Virus record (IMG/VR): IMGVR_UViG_3300020043_002142
Span: 1 to 40,917 of that record
From: a virus
Taxonomy: Duplodnaviria; Caudoviricetes
Length of the DNA stretch: 40,917 bases
Strand: one strand, 5' to 3'
Of this stretch, positions 11,994 to 36,586 are shown in pieces; the first letter of the stretch is position 1, and the number at the start of each line of letters is the position of its first letter. The position numbers and the translations under genes are program-made. The notes below the pieces were generated by a model, which saw only the letters and a program-made list of their open reading frames with translations, made no database searches and was not told where the DNA came from.

Positions 11994-14900
11994 ATGGCAA
12001 AAGAATTCTCGTTTGAAGAGGCAATTGGCACACCTAAAGAGGAAAAAGAAAAGAAGTCGTTTTCTTTTCAAGAAGCCGTACAGCAACCAAGTGCTCCTTT
12101 TTCTCTTAAAAACCTAGGTCTTGCTTTCGGCCAAGGATTGACCGGTGCAACGCAAGACATTTCTAGTATTGCCGGTGCAACCAATCCTCTTGCTCAAGGC
12201 TTAGGTAGTTTGCAACAAACTGCTGGTGAGGCAATGACTCCTGAGCGCAGAGCTGAGATTCAACGTCGCCAACAAATTGAGAAAGCCGCAGAAGGCAACA
12301 CTTGGGAAGAGATCAAAGCCAAGCTTGGCGGTGTTGCTGAGGCTCCCCTTATAACAGCAGCAACAGTTGCTGGCGGTGTTGTTCCATACATAGCTGGTAC
12401 GCTTGCAGTCCCAGAGGTTGCTATTCCTGCAATGGTTGCAAGGCTTACCGGCCTTGGCATGTCTGCTAAGGCAGCGCAGAGGGTTGCCTCCGCAGTGCCT
12501 GTTACTGCCGTTGGTGGAGTGATGGGCCTTGGCGGTCAGAAAGCCCAAGACTACGACACAGTCAAACGTGAGTTGCTTGAAAAGGGTGTTAAAGAAGAAG
12601 AAGCGGAAATCCTTGCTCAAAAGGCCGCAGAGTATTCTTTAAAGAATCTTCCTAGACAAGCCGCAGCTGCTGGCGCTGGCGCATTTGAAGGCGCTATTGG
12701 TGCTGAAGGTTTGTTGAGCCGTGCTATTAAGAAGCCTCCTCAAATCCAAGGCAAACCAGTCAATATGCCTGAGCCAACTTGGAAAGAAGCAATTGCAAAA
12801 AGCACTGTTGGCGAAGCTTTGCCTGAAGGCCTTCAATCTGCGGTTGGCACTGCCGGAACGAACGTTGCTCTGACCGAGGCTGGTATCCCCACAGACATTA
12901 CCAAAGGCTTAGTGTCTAGCGCGGTACGCGATACATTAGTTGGCGGCCTCATGGGTACGGCTGTCTCTCCATTGAAAATGAGAGAGCTACGCCAAGAATA
13001 TGTAGCCAACGAAATAGAATCCCAAAGAGAATTTCAAAAGCAGCAGCGCGAAGAAATTGCTGCCGCAAAGAAGCGTTTAGACGATCAATTGGCAATGACC
13101 AAGAACCCTCTTGGATCATTCACTATGGAAGATCTTGGCCCAGACTTAGCCAAGACTGTTGAGCAACACCGTATTGATACAGGTAAGCCAGCACTTACAT
13201 CTTATGCTCTGGATGACATCATTGATGCTCTCCCCGGCGTAGACAAAGCCAAAGAGACAGAGAGTTTAAACGCATTAATTGCAGCCAAATCTGGCTACAC
13301 CAACGAGGTTTACACGCCTGCCCAGCTCATTGAGATTGCTCAGGCTAAGAACGTAGACAGTGCTGCACCTAGCTTTGCTGACTTTCTGTCCAGAACGACC
13401 GGTGTCAGTGATCCAATGCAGATGTCTCAGCCACAGCTTCATGCGGCTATTACGTCCTTAGATAAACTGCCCGGCTTTGCCGCACCGCAGGCTCTGCCTG
13501 AAGGCTCAAACGCCACCCGCTACAGCCCTGAGCAGCTGACAATTGCCATCGACAGTTTAAACGCCAAGATGGATTTGCTTGGCAAAGACGAGCTTGGATT
13601 TAAAGAGGCAGCCCAAACAATAGAAACAGCCACAGGACTTAAGGGTTCTGCGGTTAATGCGTTGGTTAATGATGCCATCCAAAAGGGCGATGTTGCCGCC
13701 AACGAAAACAAAACAATTAGCGTTCCCTCACGCACTATACCTACTGGATACGGCATTTCCGAGGAGTTTGGCGCAGAAGAAGAAGTCGCAGATGCGTATG
13801 ACATCATGCGTGGCGATGAGAAGCTGACCTCCGTGCCAGACCAGAAAGCCGCTGACACTCTCTTAGAGAAGCTGCAAAAGATTACAGAAGCTGACATCAA
13901 GAAAGTTGATGCAGATCTCAAGGCTATTGACGAGAAGACAGCCAAGTCTGAGGACGAACTAAACAGACTGATTGTTGAAGGCAAAGCTAACACTGCGGAA
14001 TACAAGGCCGCAGAGAAGGCTCATCAAGACCTGATGGATGCCTCTATGCCCACCATTGCAGAATTGGTGGCTAAGAAGGAGTCTTATGGTAAACCACTAG
14101 AAGCTGTTCCAACAGGCGTTAAAACAGTCAGGCCTGCGTCTTACATTGTGCGTAGGGGTGATGAGATCCGCACCATTGCACAAGACCGTGCTGCGGCTGA
14201 ACAGGCTATCTTTGAAGAACTATCTGAGGCAGACCTTCAAGACCTTGTAAAGCGGCCTTCGCCCGCGTTACAGCAGCGTGTAAACGCAGAGATCCAGCGC
14301 AGAGCAGCATTGCCGGTTACCGGCGCTCCTGCAACAGCGGTAACGCCTGAGCAACAAGTTAAATTAGATCAACTTAAAGTTGAGCTTCCAGCCCTGCTTA
14401 CCAAGTTTGGTTTGAAGGATGTTGGCCTCAAGATTGTTGATGCAATTGAAGGTGGTGCTGACGGCTCCTACCAAGCCAAGTTAATTCAGATTGCATTAAG
14501 CGCAGAAAACCCTATCACGACCCTGCGTCACGAGGCTATCCACGCTCTGAAAGAGTTAGGCTTCTTTACGCCTCAGCAATGGAAGGCATTGGAGCGTCAG
14601 GCTGAGAAGGAATGGGTACAAAAATACCTGAAGAACGTCAGGGTTGAAGTTGGTGGACAAACAATGTCCCGCTATGACGCTTATTCCAAAGGCGTAAAAG
14701 ATGCAAAAGGCGAGTTCATCCTAAAGCCGCTTAGCGCAGAATCTGTACTGGAAGAAGCTATTGCCGATGCCTTTGCTGACTTTGATGCAAACAAAGCGCC
14801 TCCCGGAATGTTGACTGCATTGTTGAACAAGATGCGCAACTTCTTCACTGCGCTGCGTAATCGTTTAAACGGTGCTGGATTCCAGACATACGAAGACGTG

Positions 14901-17900
14901 TTCGGTAAAGTTGAGAAGGGTCAGCTCAAAGCTACCGCTCCAGAGGTTGAGGTCGAGCAGAAATTTAGCCTTGCACCAGAAGGAATACCTCAAAAGCTTT
15001 GGGATTTGCATAACAAGGCTATGGCCGCTGATGAGGCAGCTAGTACTTGGAATGCTGGCTCTAGAAAAGCTAATGCAACCAAAGCAAGCAATCGTTTAGT
15101 TCGGGCTGTGGATGAATATTTCCCTGATGATTATCAGGCGCAAATGGCAATCATGACCAGAATGAATGAGGAATCCAGTAAGCGCGGAGAAGGCTTCTTT
15201 GGCACTCCAAAATTTAGTTTGGATACTAAAGCTGAAAAACGTCCAGAGACTACTGAATCTAAAAAATCTCTTGTTCGTGCTGCAGTTGAAGGCGAGACAG
15301 AGATCTCCACACGCAATCCACAAGGCGTTAAACGCACTAACGACCCCATCACAGACATGCTGTCAATTGATGAGGCGGCTGTACGTGAGGCCATGAAGGC
15401 CAACCCCGATATGTATAAACGCACCATCCAAGCCATTAAGGGTTATGGATTTGTGCCAAACAATACAGCACCTAACGATGTAATTAATGTGTTTAAACGC
15501 AACATCATTAGCAATTTGCTGTATCTCTATAACAAAGTTCCTGCGGATATTCGTGAGCGCAGTAAGCTTTGGTATGACGGTGCAAACCGTATTGCCACCG
15601 ACATGAGCAAGGAATACAAGGTTTCTATGGAGCAAGTGGCTGGCATCATGGCCGCCATGTCTCCTCAGAAAGACTGGTTCCAAAACGTTTCTATGGCTGA
15701 ACGTGCGTTGGACATCTTGACTGAACAAGGCGGTAAGTCTTGGGATGCCAACATGCTTAAATACGCTGAGAGCTACGTCAAAGAAGCTACCAGCCGCAAG
15801 GAGCGTGAAAAGCGTCAAGCAGCTTTTGACAAGATCAAAGGCGTAGCCCGTGCAAAAACAACTTTAAACGACATGTCGCAAGATGATGCGGCTGCGTTTA
15901 TACGTGCTTATGACGAGGCTTACAACTCCCGTCAATACAGAATTGTCACCCCAGAGGGTGGCTTTGGTGATTACGTTCGTAAGAATGATGGCGAGCCTGC
16001 CACCATGATGTGGTCTACATACGATCCAATCAAGAAGACTGTCAGCATTTTCCGTGATGGAAGTCGCAAAAACATTAGCGAGCAGTTGGGCGAAGAGCAC
16101 AAGATCCGTTCTTTCTACAACAACATTGCCGCTCCCAACAGCGACATTGGTCACGTAACAATTGATACCCACGCAGTTGCCGCAGGCTTGTTTGAGGCTT
16201 TGGCTGGCACAGACCAAGAAGTTATCCACAACTTTGGTGGCACGGGTAAGAACATCAATCTTGGTGTTGGCGGTACATACGGCATCATTGCCGATGCCTA
16301 CCGTGAAGCGGCTCAGCAAAAAGGTGTCCGTGCCCGTGAGATGCAATCCATCACATGGGAAGCTGTTCGTGGCTTGTTTGGTGAGAACATTAAGAGCACC
16401 ATCAAGCCTAAGATCCGTGCAGAGTGGACTAAGTACAAGACTGGTGAGCAATCATTTGATGCCACCCGTGAGAAAGTTATGGAGATTGCCGGTGGAATTG
16501 ACAACCCTGATTGGGTTGGAACTGGCGCTGGAGATTTTGTTGCCGACGGCGGATCAAGCTACGACAAAGCGTTTACACCAGAAGGTGGTGTGCGTCTGCG
16601 TGAAGAGAAGGACATCCGTGAGAAGTTAACCTTCAACCTGTCTGCGGTTACATCATCCATTCCCGGCCTGCGTGAGTTGTACCAACGTGCAATGGGGCGT
16701 GATAAAGAAGCCTACACCGTGCTCCAACGAGTTGCGGAAAGCTCTCTCAAGTTCTTGTTGAGTGGTACAGGTGCAAAGATTAATGTTGAGTACGCCAAGG
16801 GTGTGTATCTGTCAGACCGTGAGCCATCTATTTCTGTTGGAGTTGCATTCTCCGAAAAAGAAATGAGCAATGTGATGGCTGGCTTGGCTAAGTTTGCAGA
16901 AAGCTATAACCAACAACAGATCCATGTGCGCCAAGAGACTGCGCAGAAGTTTGGTCATAACTTTGGCGATGGCTCATACGCCACCGCAGTGTATGAAATT
17001 GACCTCAAAAAATCGTTAAACAACGAAGCTATTTCAAGAGTTATTGACGACAGCGGCCTACAAGGTTTTACAATCACAGATAAAACCCTGACTGCATATT
17101 TTGTAAGGACAGAAGGCAATGAACAAGACAACTTCAAATCTTTCGGAGAGCGGATCAAGCGAGTCCACGAATTGGTGGGAGACAGCTCTAGCCGACCTAG
17201 ACGAACAATTGAACGCCTCTACGTCTACGGAGAAGGATACGGAGCAAGGATCCCGTACAGCGAAGTCGCGTACCCTTCAAGCGACATTCGTACCAAGCAA
17301 GCGAGTGATACAGTAACTCCCAAGCTTATTGCTGAGTACTTAACAAAAGCTCCTGTTACAACGTTTAAACAGAAGCCACTTAGCGCCAAGCAGGTCAAAG
17401 AACAGGAAAAGTTATCTAGGGCATTTGATGCCATGCCTGTTAACGACTTGAAGAATCCGTTGGTCAAACGAGCCTACACTGCGTTGGCAAACTCTCTTAA
17501 AGAGCAATATCAAGTCATGCCTATTAAGGTTGAGTTGATGGAGACCATTGACGAGCCTTACGCCAACAGCGATGCTGTCCGTCGGGATGTGAGTGTAAAC
17601 AACAGATTTAAGGTTTACGCCACTTCTCCTGAGACATTTGGCCCACCCGGTTCAAACTTTAAAAATCATCCGCTGCTTAAAGACTCCGGGCTAAAGGATG
17701 TAAACGGCAAGCCAATGCTGTACAACGACTTGCTCCGTGCAGTCCATGATTACTTTGCCCACAACCTGACTGAGACTCAGTTTGGCCCTAATGGTGAAGC
17801 AGCCGCTTGGCGCAACCACATGTCTATCACGCCTGATCCGTTTGCACGTTGGGCATTGACATCAGAAACCCGTGCGCAAAATGCATGGCAAAACTTCCGT

Positions 17901-20900
17901 CCAGAAGCAAAAGGCTTGAGCCTTATTGAAAGAGGATTTGCAGATCAGAAGGCGGCTTTGCCACCTCTTGAGTTTGTGATGACTGGTGATGCAAAGATTG
18001 ACCAGCCTGTTACCGAGCTGAAGGAAGTGCTAACGCCCGAACAACAGCGTGGCAGTGTTCCAACTACGGCTAAGTACAGCCTGCGCAAGGCTCCAGAAAC
18101 ACCTGAGTTTAAACGCTTCTTTGGCCTCAGTAAGGTTGTCAACGACGACGGCACACCCAAAGTCATGTACCACGGCACTGCCCGGAACATTGATACGTTT
18201 AAACCACGTCAAGCTGGCGCTATTTTCCTGACTGAGAACCCAGAGTTTGCAGGCGAATACGCAGATGTTTCTGCTGAAAACAAAGCCCTTGAGCGTAATC
18301 TTTCTGATTACTCTGCACAGGAATTGGATAAAGCCAAGGTACAAGCCATTGCTGATGTCCGTGCATCCTATGGAAACAACAAAGAATCTGCCGGTCTTAT
18401 CAAAGAGATAAAGTCTGGCAACCCACAGGGTGAGGCTTTAGACTTCCTCAAGCTTGCCGCTGATAAGCTGTTCCCTGAAGCAGGTCAAAACATCATGCCT
18501 GTGTATGTGCGGGCTGAGCGACCATTTGACTACGAGAACCCAGATCATGTTGCTGCGCTTGGTTTAAACGACATAGACACAGAAGATCTTGCCAACAACG
18601 TGGCTAGACTTGAGTCTGACCGTGTCCAAGATGCAATTAGAGCCGCTGGCTTTGATGGTTTCTATATCAAACAGGGCAAGCAAAAGAACCTTGCAGTTTA
18701 TGACCCCGTGCAGATTAAGTCTGCCACAGGCAACGTAGGAACGTTTGACACAACAAATCCTGACATTCGTTACAGTCTGCGTAAGGTTCAAGACGAAGTA
18801 GATTCATTGCCTAACGGTTCGGCTATCAACGCTAGTATCAACAGAATCACTACCGCCCGTGAGCCAGAAGGCTTCTTTGAGCGCATCATTAATGCGTTTA
18901 AACCACAGAGCGTAGACGCGCTGCGCCAGCAATGGCTCAACCGCTACAACCAACTCGGTGTGTATGACAAAGAGCTTGCCAAGCAAATGGGTGGAGCCGC
19001 TCTCCTTGCTGATGCAAGCGCAGAATCTGCCGCTCTGATGTCTGACAATGCCGCCGCCATTGCGTCTATGGCTTGTGGTATCGATGGTAAAGGTGGCATT
19101 CCAGTCTTTAACAACGGCTTTACCACAGTTAGCAGTGCCAATGGTGAGAAGGGTGTCCTTGAGATCCTGATGCCTTTGGCTCAGATTGGTGATCCACGTA
19201 TCTATCAAACCTATCAGTTCTGGGCTGGCGCTAAGCGTGGTAAACGCTTGTTAGCCAATGGTAAAGATCATACTTACACCCCCGCAGAAATTGCTTACGC
19301 AGCGGAGCTGGAGAAGAAGTACCCTGAGTTTAAACAAGTCCAACAAGACTGGATCAAATACAACAACGGGCTGATGAAATACGCAGTGGCTACCGGTGTT
19401 CTTGCTCCAGAAAGAGCCGCAGAGTTCATGAAGTACTCTGACTACATCCCGTTCTATCGTCAGATAGACGGTGAGAACACTGTCGGCCCAAGACTGTTCC
19501 AAAACATCTCAGGAGTTACACCTCCTAAGAAGCTGACAGGTATCAAAGAAGGACAAGAAGCGCCTCTGGCTGACTTCCTAGAGACCATTGTTCGCAACAC
19601 TCAGTCCATCATTCAGTCTGGCATGAAGAACACTGCGGCACAACGTGCCATCGGTGCGGCTGTCCAGTTGAAGACTGCTCAAAAGCGCAATGACGTGTCA
19701 TACGCTCCCGGAGTTGTGACTGTCTTGGAGCGTGGTAAGCCTGTCTCCTACGATGTCTCAGATCAGTTGTTCATTGATGCGGTTAAGAGTTTAAACCTAC
19801 CAGAGTTGCCATTCCTAAGCATCTTCTCTGCGCCAGCCAATCTGCTGAGAAACCTGATCACCAAAGATCCGGGCTTTATGATGGCTAACTTGATGCGTGA
19901 CTCCTTGTCTGCGTGGGTTACCAGCGGCGCAAAGATGACTCCTATCGCCTCTACCATCTCTAACTTTGGCAAGGCCATCGGTGGCAAAGATCCCGCTTAC
20001 CTTGCCCTGCGCAATGCAGGTGTGATCGGTGGTTATGAGTTTGCTCAAGACATCAAAACAAGTGGCTCTGTCTTGGGTGCAAGTCTGCGTAGAGCAACGG
20101 GTACAGAGCAAGGTTCTGAGAAGGCTCTCAAGCCGTTTACAAGCCTCTGGCGTGGCCTAGAAAAGGGCACAGAGGCATCTGATGCCGCTACCCGTATGGC
20201 AGTCTACAAATCAACCTTGGAGCGTACAGGCAACGAGGCAGAAGCTATCTACCGCGCTATGGAAGTCTTGAACTTCAACCGCAAAGGTAACCTTGCCATT
20301 GTTCGTATTCTGACTGCGGCTGTGCCATTCTTGAATGCACGTATGCAGGGCTTGGATGTGTTCTACCGTGCCGCCTTTGGCAAGATGGCTAGTGAAGATG
20401 CGGCTGCAATTCAGCGTTCATTCTTCATCCGTGGTGCAACCCTCATGGCCCTGTCAGCCATGTATTGGTTCCTGACCCATGATGAAGAGGAATACATTAA
20501 CCAAGAGCAAGAGACACGAGACAACAATTGGTTGTTCCCGTCCGTGGGCATTCGGATCCCAATCCCGTTTGAGGTTGGTGTCCTGTTTAAAACAATCCCC
20601 GAGCGTCTGCTTGAGTACTCTTTCGGTAACGACACTGGTAAAGATCTAGCTGACTCTATGAAGCGTAACTTGATCAGCACCTTTGGTATCAACCCAATCC
20701 CGCAGACTTTCTTGCCATTGGTTGAGGCTCGCACCAACTACTCTTTCTTCACAATGAGACCCATTGTTGGACAGGGTATGGAAGGCGTAGCCACTGAGTA
20801 TCAGGTGTCTCCCGGAACTTCTGAGTTGGCTAAGACGGTCGGTAAGTCTATTGGCGAGTCCCCCATCATGGTTGATCACATCATCAAGGGATACACAGGC

Positions 20901-21341
20901 TCAATGGGTATGTACGCAGTTGACTTGATTGATGCGATCCTCCTCGGAAATGATGAGTCACCCAAGGTTGCTAAACGCTTTGAGCAGATGCCTGTCATCA
21001 AGCGATTCACTGTGGACAAAGAAGCCAAGGGAACTGTGACTGCTTACTATGAGCTAAAGAACTCTGTTGATGAGGTTGTGAGAACAGTCAACTTGATGGA
21101 GCGCACTGGTAACGCTGAAGATCTTGGCGCTTACATGGAGAAGAATGCTCAGTTGTTTGGCATGAGAAACTACATAAGTAGCGTAGAGAAACAGATGAAG
21201 GTGATGCGTGAAGCGGCAATCCAGATCCGCTCATCTGATATGTCTCCTGAAGAGAAGAGAGATTCTCTAATGGCTATCACACAGGCTCAGAATGCCATGA
21301 CATCAAGCATTAGAGAACTCAAAAAATCTATTGCACAGTAA
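11994..21341 (+). CDS. Giant polyvalent (likely injected) protein: metallopeptidase, HhH-glycosylase-like, HD-motif, ADP-ribosyltransferase and LPD38-like domains
   Basis: 3115 aa; HEAIH at 14529; WYDG/AAMSPQ/VTIDTH/QSITW; NDLLRAVHDYFAH; MYHGT...IFLT...QIKSATGN; C-terminal NWLFP...IRIPIPFEVGVLFK. Confidence 0.8.
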   Translation: MAKEFSFEEAIGTPKEEKEKKSFSFQEAVQQPSAPFSLKNLGLAFGQGLTGATQDISSIAGATNPLAQGLGSLQQTAGEAMTPERRAEIQRRQQIEKAAEGNTWEEIKAKLGGVAEAPLITAATVAGGVVPYIAGTLAVPEVAIPAMVARLTGLGMSAKAAQRVASAVPVTAVGGVMGLGGQKAQDYDTVKRELLEKGVKEEEAEILAQKAAEYSLKNLPRQAAAAGAGAFEGAIGAEGLLSRAIKKPPQIQGKPVNMPEPTWKEAIAKSTVGEALPEGLQSAVGTAGTNVALTEAGIPTDITKGLVSSAVRDTLVGGLMGTAVSPLKMRELRQEYVANEIESQREFQKQQREEIAAAKKRLDDQLAMTKNPLGSFTMEDLGPDLAKTVEQHRIDTGKPALTSYALDDIIDALPGVDKAKETESLNALIAAKSGYTNEVYTPAQLIEIAQAKNVDSAAPSFADFLSRTTGVSDPMQMSQPQLHAAITSLDKLPGFAAPQALPEGSNATRYSPEQLTIAIDSLNAKMDLLGKDELGFKEAAQTIETATGLKGSAVNALVNDAIQKGDVAANENKTISVPSRTIPTGYGISEEFGAEEEVADAYDIMRGDEKLTSVPDQKAADTLLEKLQKITEADIKKVDADLKAIDEKTAKSEDELNRLIVEGKANTAEYKAAEKAHQDLMDASMPTIAELVAKKESYGKPLEAVPTGVKTVRPASYIVRRGDEIRTIAQDRAAAEQAIFEELSEADLQDLVKRPSPALQQRVNAEIQRRAALPVTGAPATAVTPEQQVKLDQLKVELPALLTKFGLKDVGLKIVDAIEGGADGSYQAKLIQIALSAENPITTLRHEAIHALKELGFFTPQQWKALERQAEKEWVQKYLKNVRVEVGGQTMSRYDAYSKGVKDAKGEFILKPLSAESVLEEAIADAFADFDANKAPPGMLTALLNKMRNFFTALRNRLNGAGFQTYEDVFGKVEKGQLKATAPEVEVEQKFSLAPEGIPQKLWDLHNKAMAADEAASTWNAGSRKANATKASNRLVRAVDEYFPDDYQAQMAIMTRMNEESSKRGEGFFGTPKFSLDTKAEKRPETTESKKSLVRAAVEGETEISTRNPQGVKRTNDPITDMLSIDEAAVREAMKANPDMYKRTIQAIKGYGFVPNNTAPNDVINVFKRNIISNLLYLYNKVPADIRERSKLWYDGANRIATDMSKEYKVSMEQVAGIMAAMSPQKDWFQNVSMAERALDILTEQGGKSWDANMLKYAESYVKEATSRKEREKRQAAFDKIKGVARAKTTLNDMSQDDAAAFIRAYDEAYNSRQYRIVTPEGGFGDYVRKNDGEPATMMWSTYDPIKKTVSIFRDGSRKNISEQLGEEHKIRSFYNNIAAPNSDIGHVTIDTHAVAAGLFEALAGTDQEVIHNFGGTGKNINLGVGGTYGIIADAYREAAQQKGVRAREMQSITWEAVRGLFGENIKSTIKPKIRAEWTKYKTGEQSFDATREKVMEIAGGIDNPDWVGTGAGDFVADGGSSYDKAFTPEGGVRLREEKDIREKLTFNLSAVTSSIPGLRELYQRAMGRDKEAYTVLQRVAESSLKFLLSGTGAKINVEYAKGVYLSDREPSISVGVAFSEKEMSNVMAGLAKFAESYNQQQIHVRQETAQKFGHNFGDGSYATAVYEIDLKKSLNNEAISRVIDDSGLQGFTITDKTLTAYFVRTEGNEQDNFKSFGERIKRVHELVGDSSSRPRRTIERLYVYGEGYGARIPYSEVAYPSSDIRTKQASDTVTPKLIAEYLTKAPVTTFKQKPLSAKQVKEQEKLSRAFDAMPVNDLKNPLVKRAYTALANSLKEQYQVMPIKVELMETIDEPYANSDAVRRDVSVNNRFKVYATSPETFGPPGSNFKNHPLLKDSGLKDVNGKPMLYNDLLRAVHDYFAHNLTETQFGPNGEAAAWRNHMSITPDPFARWALTSETRAQNAWQNFRPEAKGLSLIERGFADQKAALPPLEFVMTGDAKIDQPVTELKEVLTPEQQRGSVPTTAKYSLRKAPETPEFKRFFGLSKVVNDDGTPKVMYHGTARNIDTFKPRQAGAIFLTENPEFAGEYADVSAENKALERNLSDYSAQELDKAKVQAIADVRASYGNNKESAGLIKEIKSGNPQGEALDFLKLAADKLFPEAGQNIMPVYVRAERPFDYENPDHVAALGLNDIDTEDLANNVARLESDRVQDAIRAAGFDGFYIKQGKQKNLAVYDPVQIKSATGNVGTFDTTNPDIRYSLRKVQDEVDSLPNGSAINASINRITTAREPEGFFERIINAFKPQSVDALRQQWLNRYNQLGVYDKELAKQMGGAALLADASAESAALMSDNAAAIASMACGIDGKGGIPVFNNGFTTVSSANGEKGVLEILMPLAQIGDPRIYQTYQFWAGAKRGKRLLANGKDHTYTPAEIAYAAELEKKYPEFKQVQQDWIKYNNGLMKYAVATGVLAPERAAEFMKYSDYIPFYRQIDGENTVGPRLFQNISGVTPPKKLTGIKEGQEAPLADFLETIVRNTQSIIQSGMKNTAAQRAIGAAVQLKTAQKRNDVSYAPGVVTVLERGKPVSYDVSDQLFIDAVKSLNLPELPFLSIFSAPANLLRNLITKDPGFMMANLMRDSLSAWVTSGAKMTPIASTISNFGKAIGGKDPAYLALRNAGVIGGYEFAQDIKTSGSVLGASLRRATGTEQGSEKALKPFTSLWRGLEKGTEASDAATRMAVYKSTLERTGNEAEAIYRAMEVLNFNRKGNLAIVRILTAAVPFLNARMQGLDVFYRAAFGKMASEDAAAIQRSFFIRGATLMALSAMYWFLTHDEEEYINQEQETRDNNWLFPSVGIRIPIPFEVGVLFKTIPERLLEYSFGNDTGKDLADSMKRNLISTFGINPIPQTFLPLVEARTNYSFFTMRPIVGQGMEGVATEYQVSPGTSELAKTVGKSIGESPIMVDHIIKGYTGSMGMYAVDLIDAILLGNDESPKVAKRFEQMPVIKRFTVDKEAKGTVTAYYELKNSVDEVVRTVNLMERTGNAEDLGAYMEKNAQLFGMRNYISSVEKQMKVMREAAIQIRSSDMSPEEKRDSLMAITQAQNAMTSSIRELKKSIAQ

Positions 21342-23268: not shown

Positions 23269-23724
23269 TTAAACTCTTAGTTCTTCTTGAGGTCTAGCAC
23301 GTTGTTGTAAGCTCTCGTCCAACTGCAGAATGAGATCCGCTAAATCTGAATCAATTAAATGCAGTTTCTTCGTCCATCGAGCAATTGTTAATTGCAAATC
23401 ATGAACGAATTCTTCTCTTAAAGAGGAGTTGTTCATAACATCGGCCACCATTCTGTAGCCACCACCAGTCTCACGGTCTGACGGCAAACTTACAAATGCT
23501 CTGACATGTGTTGGCTCTGAAGTCAGCACAGTGATCTTACATTTTTGGATCAGATTACGGGCTTGCTCTCTGCGGTATTGAATAGCCGCCTCCGAGTCGT
23601 CCCATTCAAAGTAGGAGTGCAAGATGCTCTCTTCTTTCTTTGCCTCCTCAATCACATCATCAATCATTAACACGCCACCGTTTTGACGTGCCATCTTCTC
23701 TAACAGTTTTCTTTCTTCGTTCAT
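23269..23724 (-). CDS. Partner/accessory protein downstream of the GGN-NN array
   Basis: 151 aa, helical; LHSYFEWDDSEAAIQYRREQARNLI motif; AAGGAG RBS right after the array. Confidence 0.7.
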   Translation of the reverse strand: MNEERKLLEKMARQNGGVLMIDDVIEEAKKEESILHSYFEWDDSEAAIQYRREQARNLIQKCKITVLTSEPTHVRAFVSLPSDRETGGGYRMVADVMNNSSLREEFVHDLQLTIARWTKKLHLIDSDLADLILQLDESLQQRARPQEELRV

Positions 23725-23751
23725 GATTTCTCCTTTTGTTTAAACATAAAT

Positions 23752-24247
23752 GCCTGCCTTGCCTCACCGGAACTCACGTCGCCCCGCCCAACCTTGCCTG
23801 CCCTGCCCTACCACGCTATTCCTAGCCGATCCATGCCTGCCATACCTTGCCAGCCCCATCTAGACCAAAACGAGCCTTGCCCCGCCTGCCTAACCATGCT
23901 CACCGCGCCATACCCGTCCAGTCCATGCCTCGCCTGCCAATCCTTTCCTTGCCAGACCCTGTCTCACCTTGCGAGTCCATGCCTGCCGAACCAAACCAAG
24001 CCACTCCATACCTAGCCCTTCCCCGCCGAGCCACGCCTGCCGTGCTAAACCGATCCTGACCGCTCCGAGCCGCGCCTATCCATGCCTGCCATACCTATCC
24101 CCACCGTGCCCCACCTATCCCGTCCATGCCTGCCCATGCCTGCCATACCTTGCCGTGCCGTACCGGAACAGGCCATGCCTTGCCACGCCACACCTGCCAT
24201 GCCAGACCGGACTGCTCCAAGCCCCGCCCATCCGGGCCTAGCCTGCC
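23752..24247 (-). ncRNA. Putative guide-RNA array (VIPR-like): ten 39-54 nt units of GGCAGGC followed by alternating NN and GGN
   Basis: On +, gcctgcc starts at 23752, 23796, 23835, 23884, 23932, 23981, 24035, 24084, 24128, 24138, 24192 (acctgcc) and 24241, with near-strict 5-nt periodicity between them. Confidence 0.8.
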
Positions 24248-24259
24248 TAGGTTTAAACG

Positions 24260-24922
24260 TCACTCAATGCCAAACTTGGCCCTGATTGCGCTTTCTCGGT
24301 CGCTCTCTACTACTTGGAACAAACCAAACCCACATCCGGCACTAGCCTTACTGTCGGGTCTGCCTGCTCCAATACCAACTTGCAAGCCGCAACGGCTAAT
24401 CAAGTTAATTACATCCACAGTTTTAAACTGATCCATATCAAAACGGATACGTAGTTTTACTGCCCACTCTTTATACATAGGACGTGAACGAACATCCACC
24501 ACGCCAGTAGCGTTACGGGTGTGTGCGGTGTATGTATCGCTCTTTCCATAGACACGAACCAATGGGATGCCATCCTGTTGATCCCAGCCGTCAGCCTCTA
24601 CAAACGTTGACAGCTTAGCCAACGTCATCTTGAAGCCAACCAGACGACACGCAGAAATCATCGCAGCGCGAAACGATGCAGCGTTTACACCCTCCCATCC
24701 CTGCATACTGCGGTAACGCGCATCTTCTGCTTCTTTTTCGTAGTCCCGTGCATCACGAACCTTTTTACTGTTTGCAGACTTACCCTCTTGCATCTTTGCC
24801 ATCAGTTCCGCTTTCTTGCTGAAGCGTTCTACAACCAATGGAGCAATACCTTCTAGGTACACATCCACAGTTGCAAACTTAGGGGGTGAAATTACGTATG
24901 TTGTTTCAATTTCTTTAGCCAT
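24260..24922 (-). CDS. RAMP/Cas7-like RNA-binding protein (Vipr-like effector)
   Basis: N-terminal strand VYLEGIAPLVV, helix AASFRAAMISAC, RPMYKEW, and a C-terminal Gly-rich loop GIGAGRP...GCGFGLF; abuts the array. Confidence 0.75.
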   Translation of the reverse strand: MAKEIETTYVISPPKFATVDVYLEGIAPLVVERFSKKAELMAKMQEGKSANSKKVRDARDYEKEAEDARYRSMQGWEGVNAASFRAAMISACRLVGFKMTLAKLSTFVEADGWDQQDGIPLVRVYGKSDTYTAHTRNATGVVDVRSRPMYKEWAVKLRIRFDMDQFKTVDVINLISRCGLQVGIGAGRPDSKASAGCGFGLFQVVESDRESAIRAKFGIE

Positions 24923-34920: not shown

Positions 34921-35577
34921 TCATGCGGCAAGCTTGAGCTTGTTGAATGCGACAGTGCCCATGTCAGCGAGGTTGTCAACCCTCACTGCATTGGGGTAGA
35001 CACGGGAGACATTCTCTTGAATGCCGATCCCGATTGTTGTGATGCCAAGGCGTGAGCCTGAGTTGCATTGGTCGCGGGTGGCGTTGGGCGAACCCTCACC
35101 ATCGGTCAGGACGAAGCAGACCTTGCGCTCCTCTGTCCTACGTAGCAACAGGCCGTGAGCATAGTTCAGGGCGGCATAGTCGTTCGTGCCTCCACTGCAC
35201 ACGACACGCTCAAGCAGGGGCTTGACACGCTGATAGGGCGCGTTCCAAGGCTTGAGTGTAGACACCACATTGGAGAACGTCACAACACTGGTGTGCACCC
35301 CTGCTTGGCTGAGTGTGGTCAGCAGGGCGTAGCAGACATCAACGGCATGTTGCATACGATTCTCAGATTGCATCGAGCCTGAGCAGTCGAGCACGATCGT
35401 CACGGCTGAGTCAATACCTGCAACCTCAGTCCTGCGTTTAAACAGGCGGTCACTGTGCCCGATGTGGGGCAAGGCGTTGACATTGAGCGAGCCTTGCTTG
35501 CGGTTGATGTTGAACTCCTCAGTGCCTGAATTCTCAAACAGTCTGCGAATCTCATAGCGAAGTTTTGCGGGAATCAT
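34921..35577 (-). CDS. VWA-domain protein (CobT C-terminal-like)
   Basis: MIDAS motifs DCSGS, GGT and LTDG; TAAGGAG RBS before MIPAKL. Confidence 0.8.
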   Translation of the reverse strand: MIPAKLRYEIRRLFENSGTEEFNINRKQGSLNVNALPHIGHSDRLFKRRTEVAGIDSAVTIVLDCSGSMQSENRMQHAVDVCYALLTTLSQAGVHTSVVTFSNVVSTLKPWNAPYQRVKPLLERVVCSGGTNDYAALNYAHGLLLRRTEERKVCFVLTDGEGSPNATRDQCNSGSRLGITTIGIGIQENVSRVYPNAVRVDNLADMGTVAFNKLKLAA

Positions 35578-35587
35578 TGTGTGCTCC

Positions 35588-36586
35588 TTAGCAGTTGACA
35601 GTCCATTGTTTCTTATCGCTAACGTGGTATTCGTTAGCACCCATGCACCACTCACCAGTCGCGCCCCCTGCACGTGCAGTCTCGGGCACGTTGACGGTTG
35701 GCTCAGTAGAACGGGGCACAACCACAACGCGAACCTTGCCGCCATTAGGATGAGCCTTGGTGCGCTTAACGGGGGTCTTGGCATCCCCTACCTCATCGCC
35801 CTCTTTTGCGGGGCTTGTAGGGGGCTTCTCGCCCTTTGTAGGGGCATCCTTATTGCCTCCCTCCTGATCGGATGGATCACCATCATCGCAGGGGTTGCCG
35901 TCATCACTGCCTGTTGGGGGTTCAGGGTTGACGGGAGGAGGCTCAGGATTGACAGGGGGCTGAGGGGGTTGGATCTTGCACAATTGCTCAAAGACCCACT
36001 CGGCAAGCACCCATGTATCGGCAGTGTGTTGGCATGTGTTTAAACGTTTGCAAGCTTCATCAAAGATGGGCTTCAAGCCGTTAGCCAATGGCACTTTGAT
36101 TGTGCCGTGCTTGCGAGCATAGACTGCCAACACAAAGGGGTACTGCTTAGGATCTGACCAGTCGCTGACCTCATTGAGACCCTCGGTTGCCATGTTGTCG
36201 ATCAGCGTACCGAGCAAGCTTTCCACGTTGCCCGTCAACTTGCGCTCCACTGCACGGTTCTCAATGAACGCATCCTCCAAGCCGTTGTGCAAATGGATCA
36301 AGTACTCGACTGCATCGCGGTTGATGGCATTGAAGTTGGTGTACTTCCAGTGTAGAAGCTCATGCAGGGCAAAGCCTGTAAAGCGTTCAAGATCACCACG
36401 GGTCAGCACCGCATCGTCTGCGATGTTGGTGATGTAGACGTTACCCTGACGGTCAATAGCCGCAGTGGGAATGTCTGCTTTGAAAAGCACCTTGACACGG
36501 GACAGACCCAAGTCGGATGCGATTTTGTGAATGGCGGCAGTCAAGGCTGACTTGAACTCCCAACCGAAGTATTTTGCTTTAAGCAT
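35588..36586 (-). CDS. CobT N-terminal-like HExxH metalloprotein with acidic/Pro-rich tail
   Basis: LHELLHWKYT, NGLEDAFIE. Confidence 0.7.
   Translation of the reverse strand: MLKAKYFGWEFKSALTAAIHKIASDLGLSRVKVLFKADIPTAAIDRQGNVYITNIADDAVLTRGDLERFTGFALHELLHWKYTNFNAINRDAVEYLIHLHNGLEDAFIENRAVERKLTGNVESLLGTLIDNMATEGLNEVSDWSDPKQYPFVLAVYARKHGTIKVPLANGLKPIFDEACKRLNTCQHTADTWVLAEWVFEQLCKIQPPQPPVNPEPPPVNPEPPTGSDDGNPCDDGDPSDQEGGNKDAPTKGEKPPTSPAKEGDEVGDAKTPVKRTKAHPNGGKVRVVVVPRSTEPTVNVPETARAGGATGEWCMGANEYHVSDKKQWTVNC

Follow-up and report, generated by a model that had tools for sequence, protein, structure and literature searches.

The virus record analysed here, which is referred to in its full length of 40,917 bases as the window, carries on its minus strand an array of pentamers in which a conserved scaffold alternates with variable dinucleotides (NN), and the question raised by this locus is whether these dinucleotides are guides and, if so, against what DNA they are directed. 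Systems of this kind have been described. VIPR, a CRISPR-related RNA-guided DNA silencer reported in 2026, uses a guide code with a one-base skip and wobble alignment (10.64898/2026.04.26.720920), and VIPR arrays were recovered independently by a second group, according to the accessible part of its report (10.64898/2026.10.21.760802). According to published structures, each pentamer of the guide is covered by one Vipr subunit, and NN pairs with DNA in such a way that every third base is skipped (10.64898/2026.04.26.720927, accessible part). In the case of SUSP1, VIPR silences the recombinase of a satellite and stops satellite excision (10.64898/2026.10.15.759431, accessible part). Staggered VIPR arrays, the guides of which overlap by 1 nt, are mentioned in the legend of Fig. 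S18 of the first report, but the targets given in its text concern the SUSP1 and P. fulva clades and types III and V, and none is given for staggered arrays (10.64898/2026.04.26.720920).

Genomic context and structure of the array

The genes of the window include those of a holin, an endolysin, a virion protein, Sak recombinase, RusA and a primase-helicase, and no integrase was found among the 38 window ORFs scanned. The array sits between minus-strand ORFs of 220 aa (24922-24260) and 151 aa (23724-23269), which are assigned here as vipr and as a candidate for its accessory gene, vap (Table 1). This arrangement is conserved: a GGY/NN array is present 3' of vipr in 62 of 63 related IMG/VR loci (the 63rd ends 60 nt past the gene), and the vap candidate lies directly 3' of the array in all 62 loci with enough sequence. 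Both genes are intact in the window and 99-100% identical to those of its relatives. The locus is minimal and phage-borne, with vipr and one vap, and is free of a CRISPR array or a cas operon (38 window ORFs; 62/62 loci); neither repeat-spacer arrays nor cas genes that would indicate CRISPR-Cas membership were found in the window. A fold search with the Vap model gave no clear match (best Z 5.1), and the ESM Atlas neighbours of vap are viral clusters without names. A promoter scan remained at chance level. In RNA runs at most 12% of the words were present, at the level of contigs only, and these runs are therefore no evidence on expression or habitat.

Table 1. Positions of the VIPR locus components in the window, with the sites matched by particular guides
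Feature	Position	Strand	Description
vipr gene	24260..24922	-	220 aa; single RAMP/RRM-fold protein with G-loop; phrog_4652
Staggered vrRNA array	23750..24247	-	ten guides; 11 GGCA junctions of four bases, with a 1-nt overlap; without long tail
Candidate vap accessory gene	23269..23724	-	151 aa, mostly helical; phrog_15946; pLDDT 85, pTM 0.45
g1	24199..24243	-	9 units; probable diverged guide to island HGGxSTG-domain gene (antisense, wobble)
g2	24145..24194	-	10 units; weak candidate site between alpA and primase
g3	24091..24140	-	10 units; small ORF before island primase/helicase-like gene (sense, wobble)
g4	24042..24086	-	9 units; family-1 tyrosine integrase (Arm-DNA-bind_3/Phage_int_M), antisense, wobble
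g5	23988..24037	-	10 units; family-2 tyrosine integrase (332 aa), antisense, wobble
g6	23939..23983	-	9 units
g7	23891..23934	-	9 units, one of 4 nt; lead at end of CHC2 zinc-finger ORF, island L244
g8	23842..23886	-	9 units
g9	23803..23837	-	7 units; 3' segment of host moaC, a copy of which lies at each end of the island (antisense, wobble)
g10	23759..23798	-	8 units

Two other regions of the window are of separate interest. Positions 11994-21341 of the plus strand encode a 3115-aa polyvalent protein with the domains LPD38, DUF7178 and ART-PolyVal. At 34921-36586 of the minus strand, a CobT-like VWA gene, adjoined by a CobS-like AAA gene, consists of two overlapping ORFs, both of phrog_1576, which is possibly the result of a frameshift.

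The minus strand from 24247 to 23750 parses into GG-x-NN pentamers, and the successive guides overlap by 1 nt at their junctions, as in the staggered architecture. The score of this parse is 223; 300 dinucleotide shuffles reached 19.9 at most, and the rest of the window 8.4. G occupies position 1 in 84 of the 90 pentamers and position 2 in 86, and the entropies of positions 1-5 are 0.41, 0.30, 1.62, 1.95 and 1.93 bits, respectively. Position 3 is C in 43 units, T in 27, A in 18 and G in 2, i.e., C or T in 70/90, and the 20 units with a purine contradict the statement of the preliminary description that variation is confined to two fixed positions. The ten distinct guides listed in that description do all differ, and nine of the ten NN strings are right as written, but g3 was given short by two dinucleotides: it has ten units and begins with AU CA ahead of the string read before. 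The ten-unit form of g3 is present also in relatives L001, L002, L004, L005 and L059, and both extra dinucleotides are matched by the g3 target as well. The letters of g7 were likewise read correctly, but its 4-nt unit (23899-23896), which represents a one-base deletion, was passed over silently. With 7-10 units each, the guides abut, and no 3' tail of SUSP1 type was found.

At window positions 23645-24240, contigs of other runs omit whole guide units or carry different guides, and these contig-level differences suggest gain and loss of guides among strains. Two of the related loci, L043 and L044, have long arrays of about 23-24 guides each.

Vipr protein

Results of our searches place the 220-aa protein next to the known Vipr. 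With its sequence alone, phmmer returned SUSP1 Vipr (36pp_D) as the top PDB match (E 0.0035), and with a profile of 134 homologs SUSP1 Vipr was the only PDB match (E 6.9e-7), while no match was obtained in Pfam or NCBIfam. The AlphaFold model (pLDDT 93.6) has its top fold matches among Csm3/Cmr/Cas7 proteins (Z 10.2, rmsd 4.2, 146 aligned), is paired with CRISPR RAMPs by Foldseek also, and shows the RRM core, thumb and G-loop of a single RAMP protein.

The four residues of SUSP1 Vipr that read GGY are R138, D177, W178 and R179, of which D177 and W178 are essential, as stated in the accessible part of the structural report (10.64898/2026.04.26.720927). In the window Vipr the two arginines are kept as R147 and R188, whereas D177/W178 are replaced by A186/G187, and this replacement in the G-loop counts against the silencing function discussed below. 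The Ala-Gly pair (window 24358-24367) is present in 63/63 loci and in 120 close homologs; the wider family has mostly Glu-Gly at this position.

Homologs of Vipr number 5,102 at E<=0.001. Cyanophage Cy-LDV1 (L064:3645-4600) encodes vipr, a vap homolog and GGY/NN arrays, with staggered arrays flanking vap on both sides. Mycobacteriophage Donkeykong (L065:2000-2320) encodes vipr, a vap homolog and a GGY/NN array that overlaps annotated hypothetical genes.

Guide code

The spacing at which guides match DNA was determined with pooled guides. The 63 loci contributed 360 of these, restricted to regular ones of 7-14 pure pentamers; the window brings the pool to 364, and 324 remain when the g4 family is left out. 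An exact scan with the g4 core identified 2 IMG/VR loci, in one of which, an integrase, 12/364 guides match with one base skipped between dinucleotides (gap 1) vs. 0.8 for shuffles. In the 99 GTDB loci with the g4 pattern (43 integrases, 31 ribonucleotide reductase motifs and 25 others), 35/324 guides match at gap 1, vs. 6, 2 and 2 for shuffles and 5, 8 and 5 at other gaps; the records with the best of these matches bear the titles Limnohabitans, Methylopumilus and uncultured Burkholderiales. Islands with integrases of family 1 were tested in 80 of 280 metagenome loci of this integrase family at a match threshold of >=85%: 72/324 guides (32/189 clusters) match at gap 1, vs. 3, 1 and 7 for shuffles and 8, 4 and 4 at gaps 0, 2 and 3. 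The upstream-flank control of this test is not clean, 15 of its 16 matches being to island genes upstream in L192. Enrichment was seen also in six further close loci (29/256 guides vs. 0, 4 and 1 for shuffles), in 33 distant loci (47 vs. 17, 12 and 11) and, in the case of trimmed guides, in three family-2 loci (17/348 vs. 3, 0 and 3).

In 28/32 guide clusters, 14 of them sense and 14 antisense, the skipped base is the third of a codon when the longest frame is considered. At g4 sites, conservation is 0.95/0.94 for the read positions and 0.57 for the skipped one, in 54 distinct sites picked as best matches. The preliminary description had proposed one skipped base between dinucleotides, its fall on the wobble position, and a search at gaps of 0 to 3 against shuffled strings, with a lack of enrichment over shuffles at any gap as the refuting outcome. 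The enrichment at gap 1 is contrary to that outcome and bears out the one-base skip, and the codon positions of the skipped bases bear out the wobble idea. Its example, g6 read as I-L-K-E-R-L-K-K-L, is not supported: 102 exact IMG/VR matches occur in all six frames, 24 of them in the proposed one, and no other guide matches alongside. The skipped target base does not track the third scaffold base of the guide.

Not all dinucleotides appear to be read. When sites were picked from the other units, the first NN matched its target in 95% of cases, the penultimate in 65% (n = 66), the last in 34% (n = 56 guides) and the others in 82-100%. The low rate of the last NN, which begins with A in 280/396 guides, points to a junction or cap element that is mostly unread and mostly scaffold. 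The 14-20 nt of information initially ascribed to each guide is therefore too high, about 12-18 nt being a better figure.

Tandem Repeats Finder reports the locus as a period-5 array, and frames of 50-100 aa cross it, as could be expected of a degenerate microsatellite or of an ORF of low complexity whose matches arise by chance. The junction periodicity, the fixed linkage to a RAMP gene and an enrichment confined to gap 1, of 10- to 20-fold, argue against such an origin, and the four pooled-guide tests refute it; we assign it practically no probability. A decaying microsatellite had been argued against already from the sequence itself.

No self-target is present in the window at gaps 0-3, in line with the initial inspection by eye; the lowest P among 40 tests was 0.01, obtained once (g2, gap 3), which we regard as a chance result. 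There was no enrichment of guide matches in the 6-kb flanks of related phages, and no signal when guides were compared with vipr/vap homologs as peptides or with the arrays of other phages.

Target islands

The matched genes belong to islands of about 4.5-9.5 kb. In family 1, the layout comprises an integrase gene, an ORF, alpA, small ORFs, a primase or helicase gene and a gene with the HGGxSTG motif, and guides match the integrase, alpA, primase and HGGxSTG genes. The island L444, with a family-2 integrase, shares this layout. Cargo between the core genes varies, and no capsid genes were found among the island genes annotated. For instance, L243, L169 and L175 combine int, alpA and a DUF3987/DUF5906 primase gene without capsid genes, although the 529-aa ORF of L175 has no family match. 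In L169, the two copies of a tRNA-Asp 3' repeat mark the ends of the island, 9.45 kb apart.

Guides are oriented with respect to the islands: in family-1 islands L180-L259 all 8 integrase clusters are antisense to the gene and 20/25 downstream clusters are on the other strand (Fisher P 0.0002 with g4 left out). At least one guide from a cluster matching family 1 is present in 58/62 phage loci, but such clusters account for only 169/545 guide occurrences.

A further island type was seen in loci of more distant relatives of the family-2 integrase, 17 of the 40-odd loci found. In this moaC island family of freshwater Burkholderiales records (L451 at 385 and 8873, L455, L456, L458, L460, L461 and L466), the island is inserted in moaC, and the 3' part of the gene is repeated 4.5-9.0 kb away, with identical runs of up to about 180 nt. 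An HGGxSTG-like motif is present in 6 of the 17 loci. Locus L457:379-6250 contains three moaC 3' copies, one of them in frame with the HGGxSTG gene, and resembles tandem islands at one site. In L192:1-8000, on an 11.7-kb contig, island genes are present upstream of the integrase gene, so that this island may be tandem, circular or concatemeric.

Could the targets be something other than satellites that depend on the capsids of the phage, namely, integrative islands of an ordinary kind, or what is left of decayed prophages, in competition with the phage or equipped with defence cargo? The relation of helper and satellite is drawn here from sequence, the cargo is variable, and IMG/VR yielded a single relative of the family-1 integrase. 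The size of the islands, their core of integrase, alpA and DUF3987 primase genes and the lack of capsid genes are, in turn, like those of minimal satellites such as PICMI, and it is the core genes on which guides focus in 58/62 phage loci. We therefore regard ordinary islands as an improbable kind of target and treat the islands below as putative satellites.

Targets of the window guides

At least four of the ten guides (g3, g4, g5 and g9) match integrated islands of freshwater bacteria in sequence at the one-base skip. Trimmed of its last unit, g4 matches 16/16 in 45/80 loci, those loci having been fetched with an overlapping motif, and longer versions of g4 in relatives match 22/22 when trimmed. 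The matched integrases are, we assume, P4/IntA-like. Among the exact 18/18 GTDB matches of g4, 26/30 are in a ribonucleotide reductase motif, presumably of the class II enzyme, which indicates that short guides match conserved motifs by chance. The g4 matches in ribonucleotide reductase and in a large virion-type ORF (L068) were accordingly set aside as chance matches to a conserved motif.

Guide g3 matches 17/20 positions, which none of 200 shuffles did, or 17/18 when trimmed, and its counterpart in relative L004 matches 18/18 trimmed in L175. Guide g5 matches 18/20 in L444 and L446; the L010 version matches 20/20 in L444, an island matched by independent guides too. Two genus-level genome searches with g5 gave 2 and 1 matches, vs. 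3 for a reversed control, and the case for g5 is based on all three matches being to one integrase site and on co-targeting by other guides. A g5 match in a terminase gene (L066) was dropped in favour of the integrase site, which matches better and is co-targeted.

Guide g9 is widespread, being present in 20 phage loci in addition to the window. When trimmed, it matches 12/12 in 13/17 loci, with two or more copies in 9; in full length it matches 14/14 at 14 sites in 8/17 loci, which 0/150 permutations did. These matches comprise 12-14 nt, their sites represent one conserved motif and are non-independent, and the guide was picked post hoc among ten. The last target dinucleotide at the sites is AG or AA, i.e., the last unit of g9 itself or the commonest one in its family. 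As g4 and g5, g9 is antisense to the matched gene.

Matches of the remaining guides are weaker. The window g1 matches 15/18 (P=0.15), and its version in relative L005 matches 19/20 at the identical site; the HGGxSTG gene is the best g1 site in L175, L243, L257 and L444. For g2, 17/20 positions match in L243 and L249 (P=0.02, or P=0.28 without the last unit), and 0/139 genomes match at 1 mismatch. The L244 site of g7 (15/18, P=0.13, sense, wobble) is an unproven lead. No target was found in the island loci for g6 or g10, the IMG/VR scan of g6 being chance-like. Neither was a target found for g8, whose 38 IMG/VR matches are chance-like; in our view its sense reading resembles a Walker A motif. 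The initial integrase locus search returned its own query alone, and a family-level genome search gave a match in 1/401 genomes.

Three window guides, g1, g3 and g5, match their targets worse than the versions of relatives, g7 has a one-base deletion, a purine occupies 20/90 third positions, and the equivalent of D177 is Ala. These features might suggest a once-functional array that is now decaying, or guides that mainly titrate Vipr, so that the window copy silences no longer. Given the intact state of vipr and vap, with 99-100% identity to the genes of relatives, the fixation of the G-loop variant in 63/63 loci and the perfect fit of g4 and g9 at the read positions, and as the sampled islands need not be the alleles met by the window phage, we find this very unlikely.

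Discussion

Results of our analysis make it highly probable that the window contains a phage VIPR locus whose guides match integrase islands of freshwater Burkholderiales and which likely silences these islands, so that they would be unable to excise and parasitise. The identity of Vipr, the synteny in 62/62 loci, the enrichment at gap 1, the repeats at island ends and the SUSP1 precedent all argue for this explanation. The four of ten guides without a target and the two with a weak one count against it. The system and its code are already known: the guide function, the one-base skip and the avoidance of wobble positions are the published VIPR rule, and sequence comparisons support its reproduction in the clade of the window. 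The host group of the phage, as judged by the records of the targets, may be freshwater Burkholderiales.

The array would be cut at the GGCA junctions into single guides. If the SUSP1 model applies, one Vipr per pentamer would coat each guide, NN would pair with dsDNA with every third base flipped out, and Vipr binding would repress the target without cutting it. The islands would be satellites of the phage family of the window, with g4 and g5 repressing their integrases and g9 sitting on their attachment site; they would likely be held in the host chromosome, unable to excise and parasitise the phage.

With published staggered systems, the window locus shares a phage solo RAMP gene with one accessory gene, GGY/NN pentamers and the 1-nt overlap; it differs from the published staggered arrays in its 7-10 units per guide, the frequent A as the third scaffold base and the mostly unread last unit. 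The 1-nt skip, wobble alignment, targeting of both strands and lack of self-targets are shared with published VIPR in general. In the SUSP1 VIPR (type II, directed against F5 satellites), too, the recombinase of a satellite in its integrated state is what the guides match, and wobble positions are skipped (10.64898/2026.10.15.759431, accessible part). Type II guides of SUSP1 have 9-16 repeats and, beyond these, a structured 3' tail (10.64898/2026.10.15.759431; 10.64898/2026.04.26.720927; accessible parts of both), namely, a 40-nt pseudoknot, and are four in number, whereas the window has ten short guides and no tail. Within what is accessible of these reports, the SUSP1 target is described with a catalytic serine, in contrast to the tyrosine integrases, alpA, primase, HGGxSTG gene and host-gene attachment segment matched here. 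On the same basis, the target islands differ from the F5 satellites of SUSP1 in the lack of tail genes, and, unlike in the SUSP1 system, no solo vrRNA array was found in the island loci.

The PICMI of Vibrionaceae, as described in the accessible part of PMC10803314, resemble the target islands (L243) in their size of ~6 kb, the integrase gene, overlapping ORF, alpA and DUF3987 primase gene, and the lack of capsid genes. PICMI integrate at fis and are induced and packaged by a helper phage (PMC10803314, accessible part). The target islands end at tRNA-Asp or moaC where ends were seen; they also come from Burkholderiales records and have an extra HGGxSTG gene, three integrase families and varied primase/helicase types. 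With Class 1 CRISPR-Cas systems (Cas7/Csm3), the window locus has in common the RAMP fold and a protein filament on guide RNA, but it lacks a repeat-spacer array and a cas operon, and its code is non-contiguous.

A more specific possibility, which we put forward tentatively, is that a freshwater lineage aims a staggered VIPR panel at undescribed capsid-less satellites (three integrase families, HGGxSTG), and that g9, among the most widely kept of its guides and directed at the moaC attachment site of the host instead of a satellite gene, leads Vipr to cover DNA next to the crossover, which would prevent excision or integration. Our literature search found no paper on HGGxSTG, and the combination of moaC and integrase gave only listings that look unrelated; targets for staggered arrays, an island family of this kind and an attachment-site guide were not found in the literature examined, the supplementary data of which could hold them. 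If this possibility is true, g9 would represent RNA-guided control of site-specific recombination.

The anti-satellite action of VIPR has been tested so far in one E. coli phage, and the window locus would, by our analysis, extend this role to staggered arrays and to an abundant phage lineage, with natural guide-target pairs now named. Decoded guides can also be used to find satellite families and to indicate which host group is likely, and the mostly unread last unit bears on the design of short tail-less guides.
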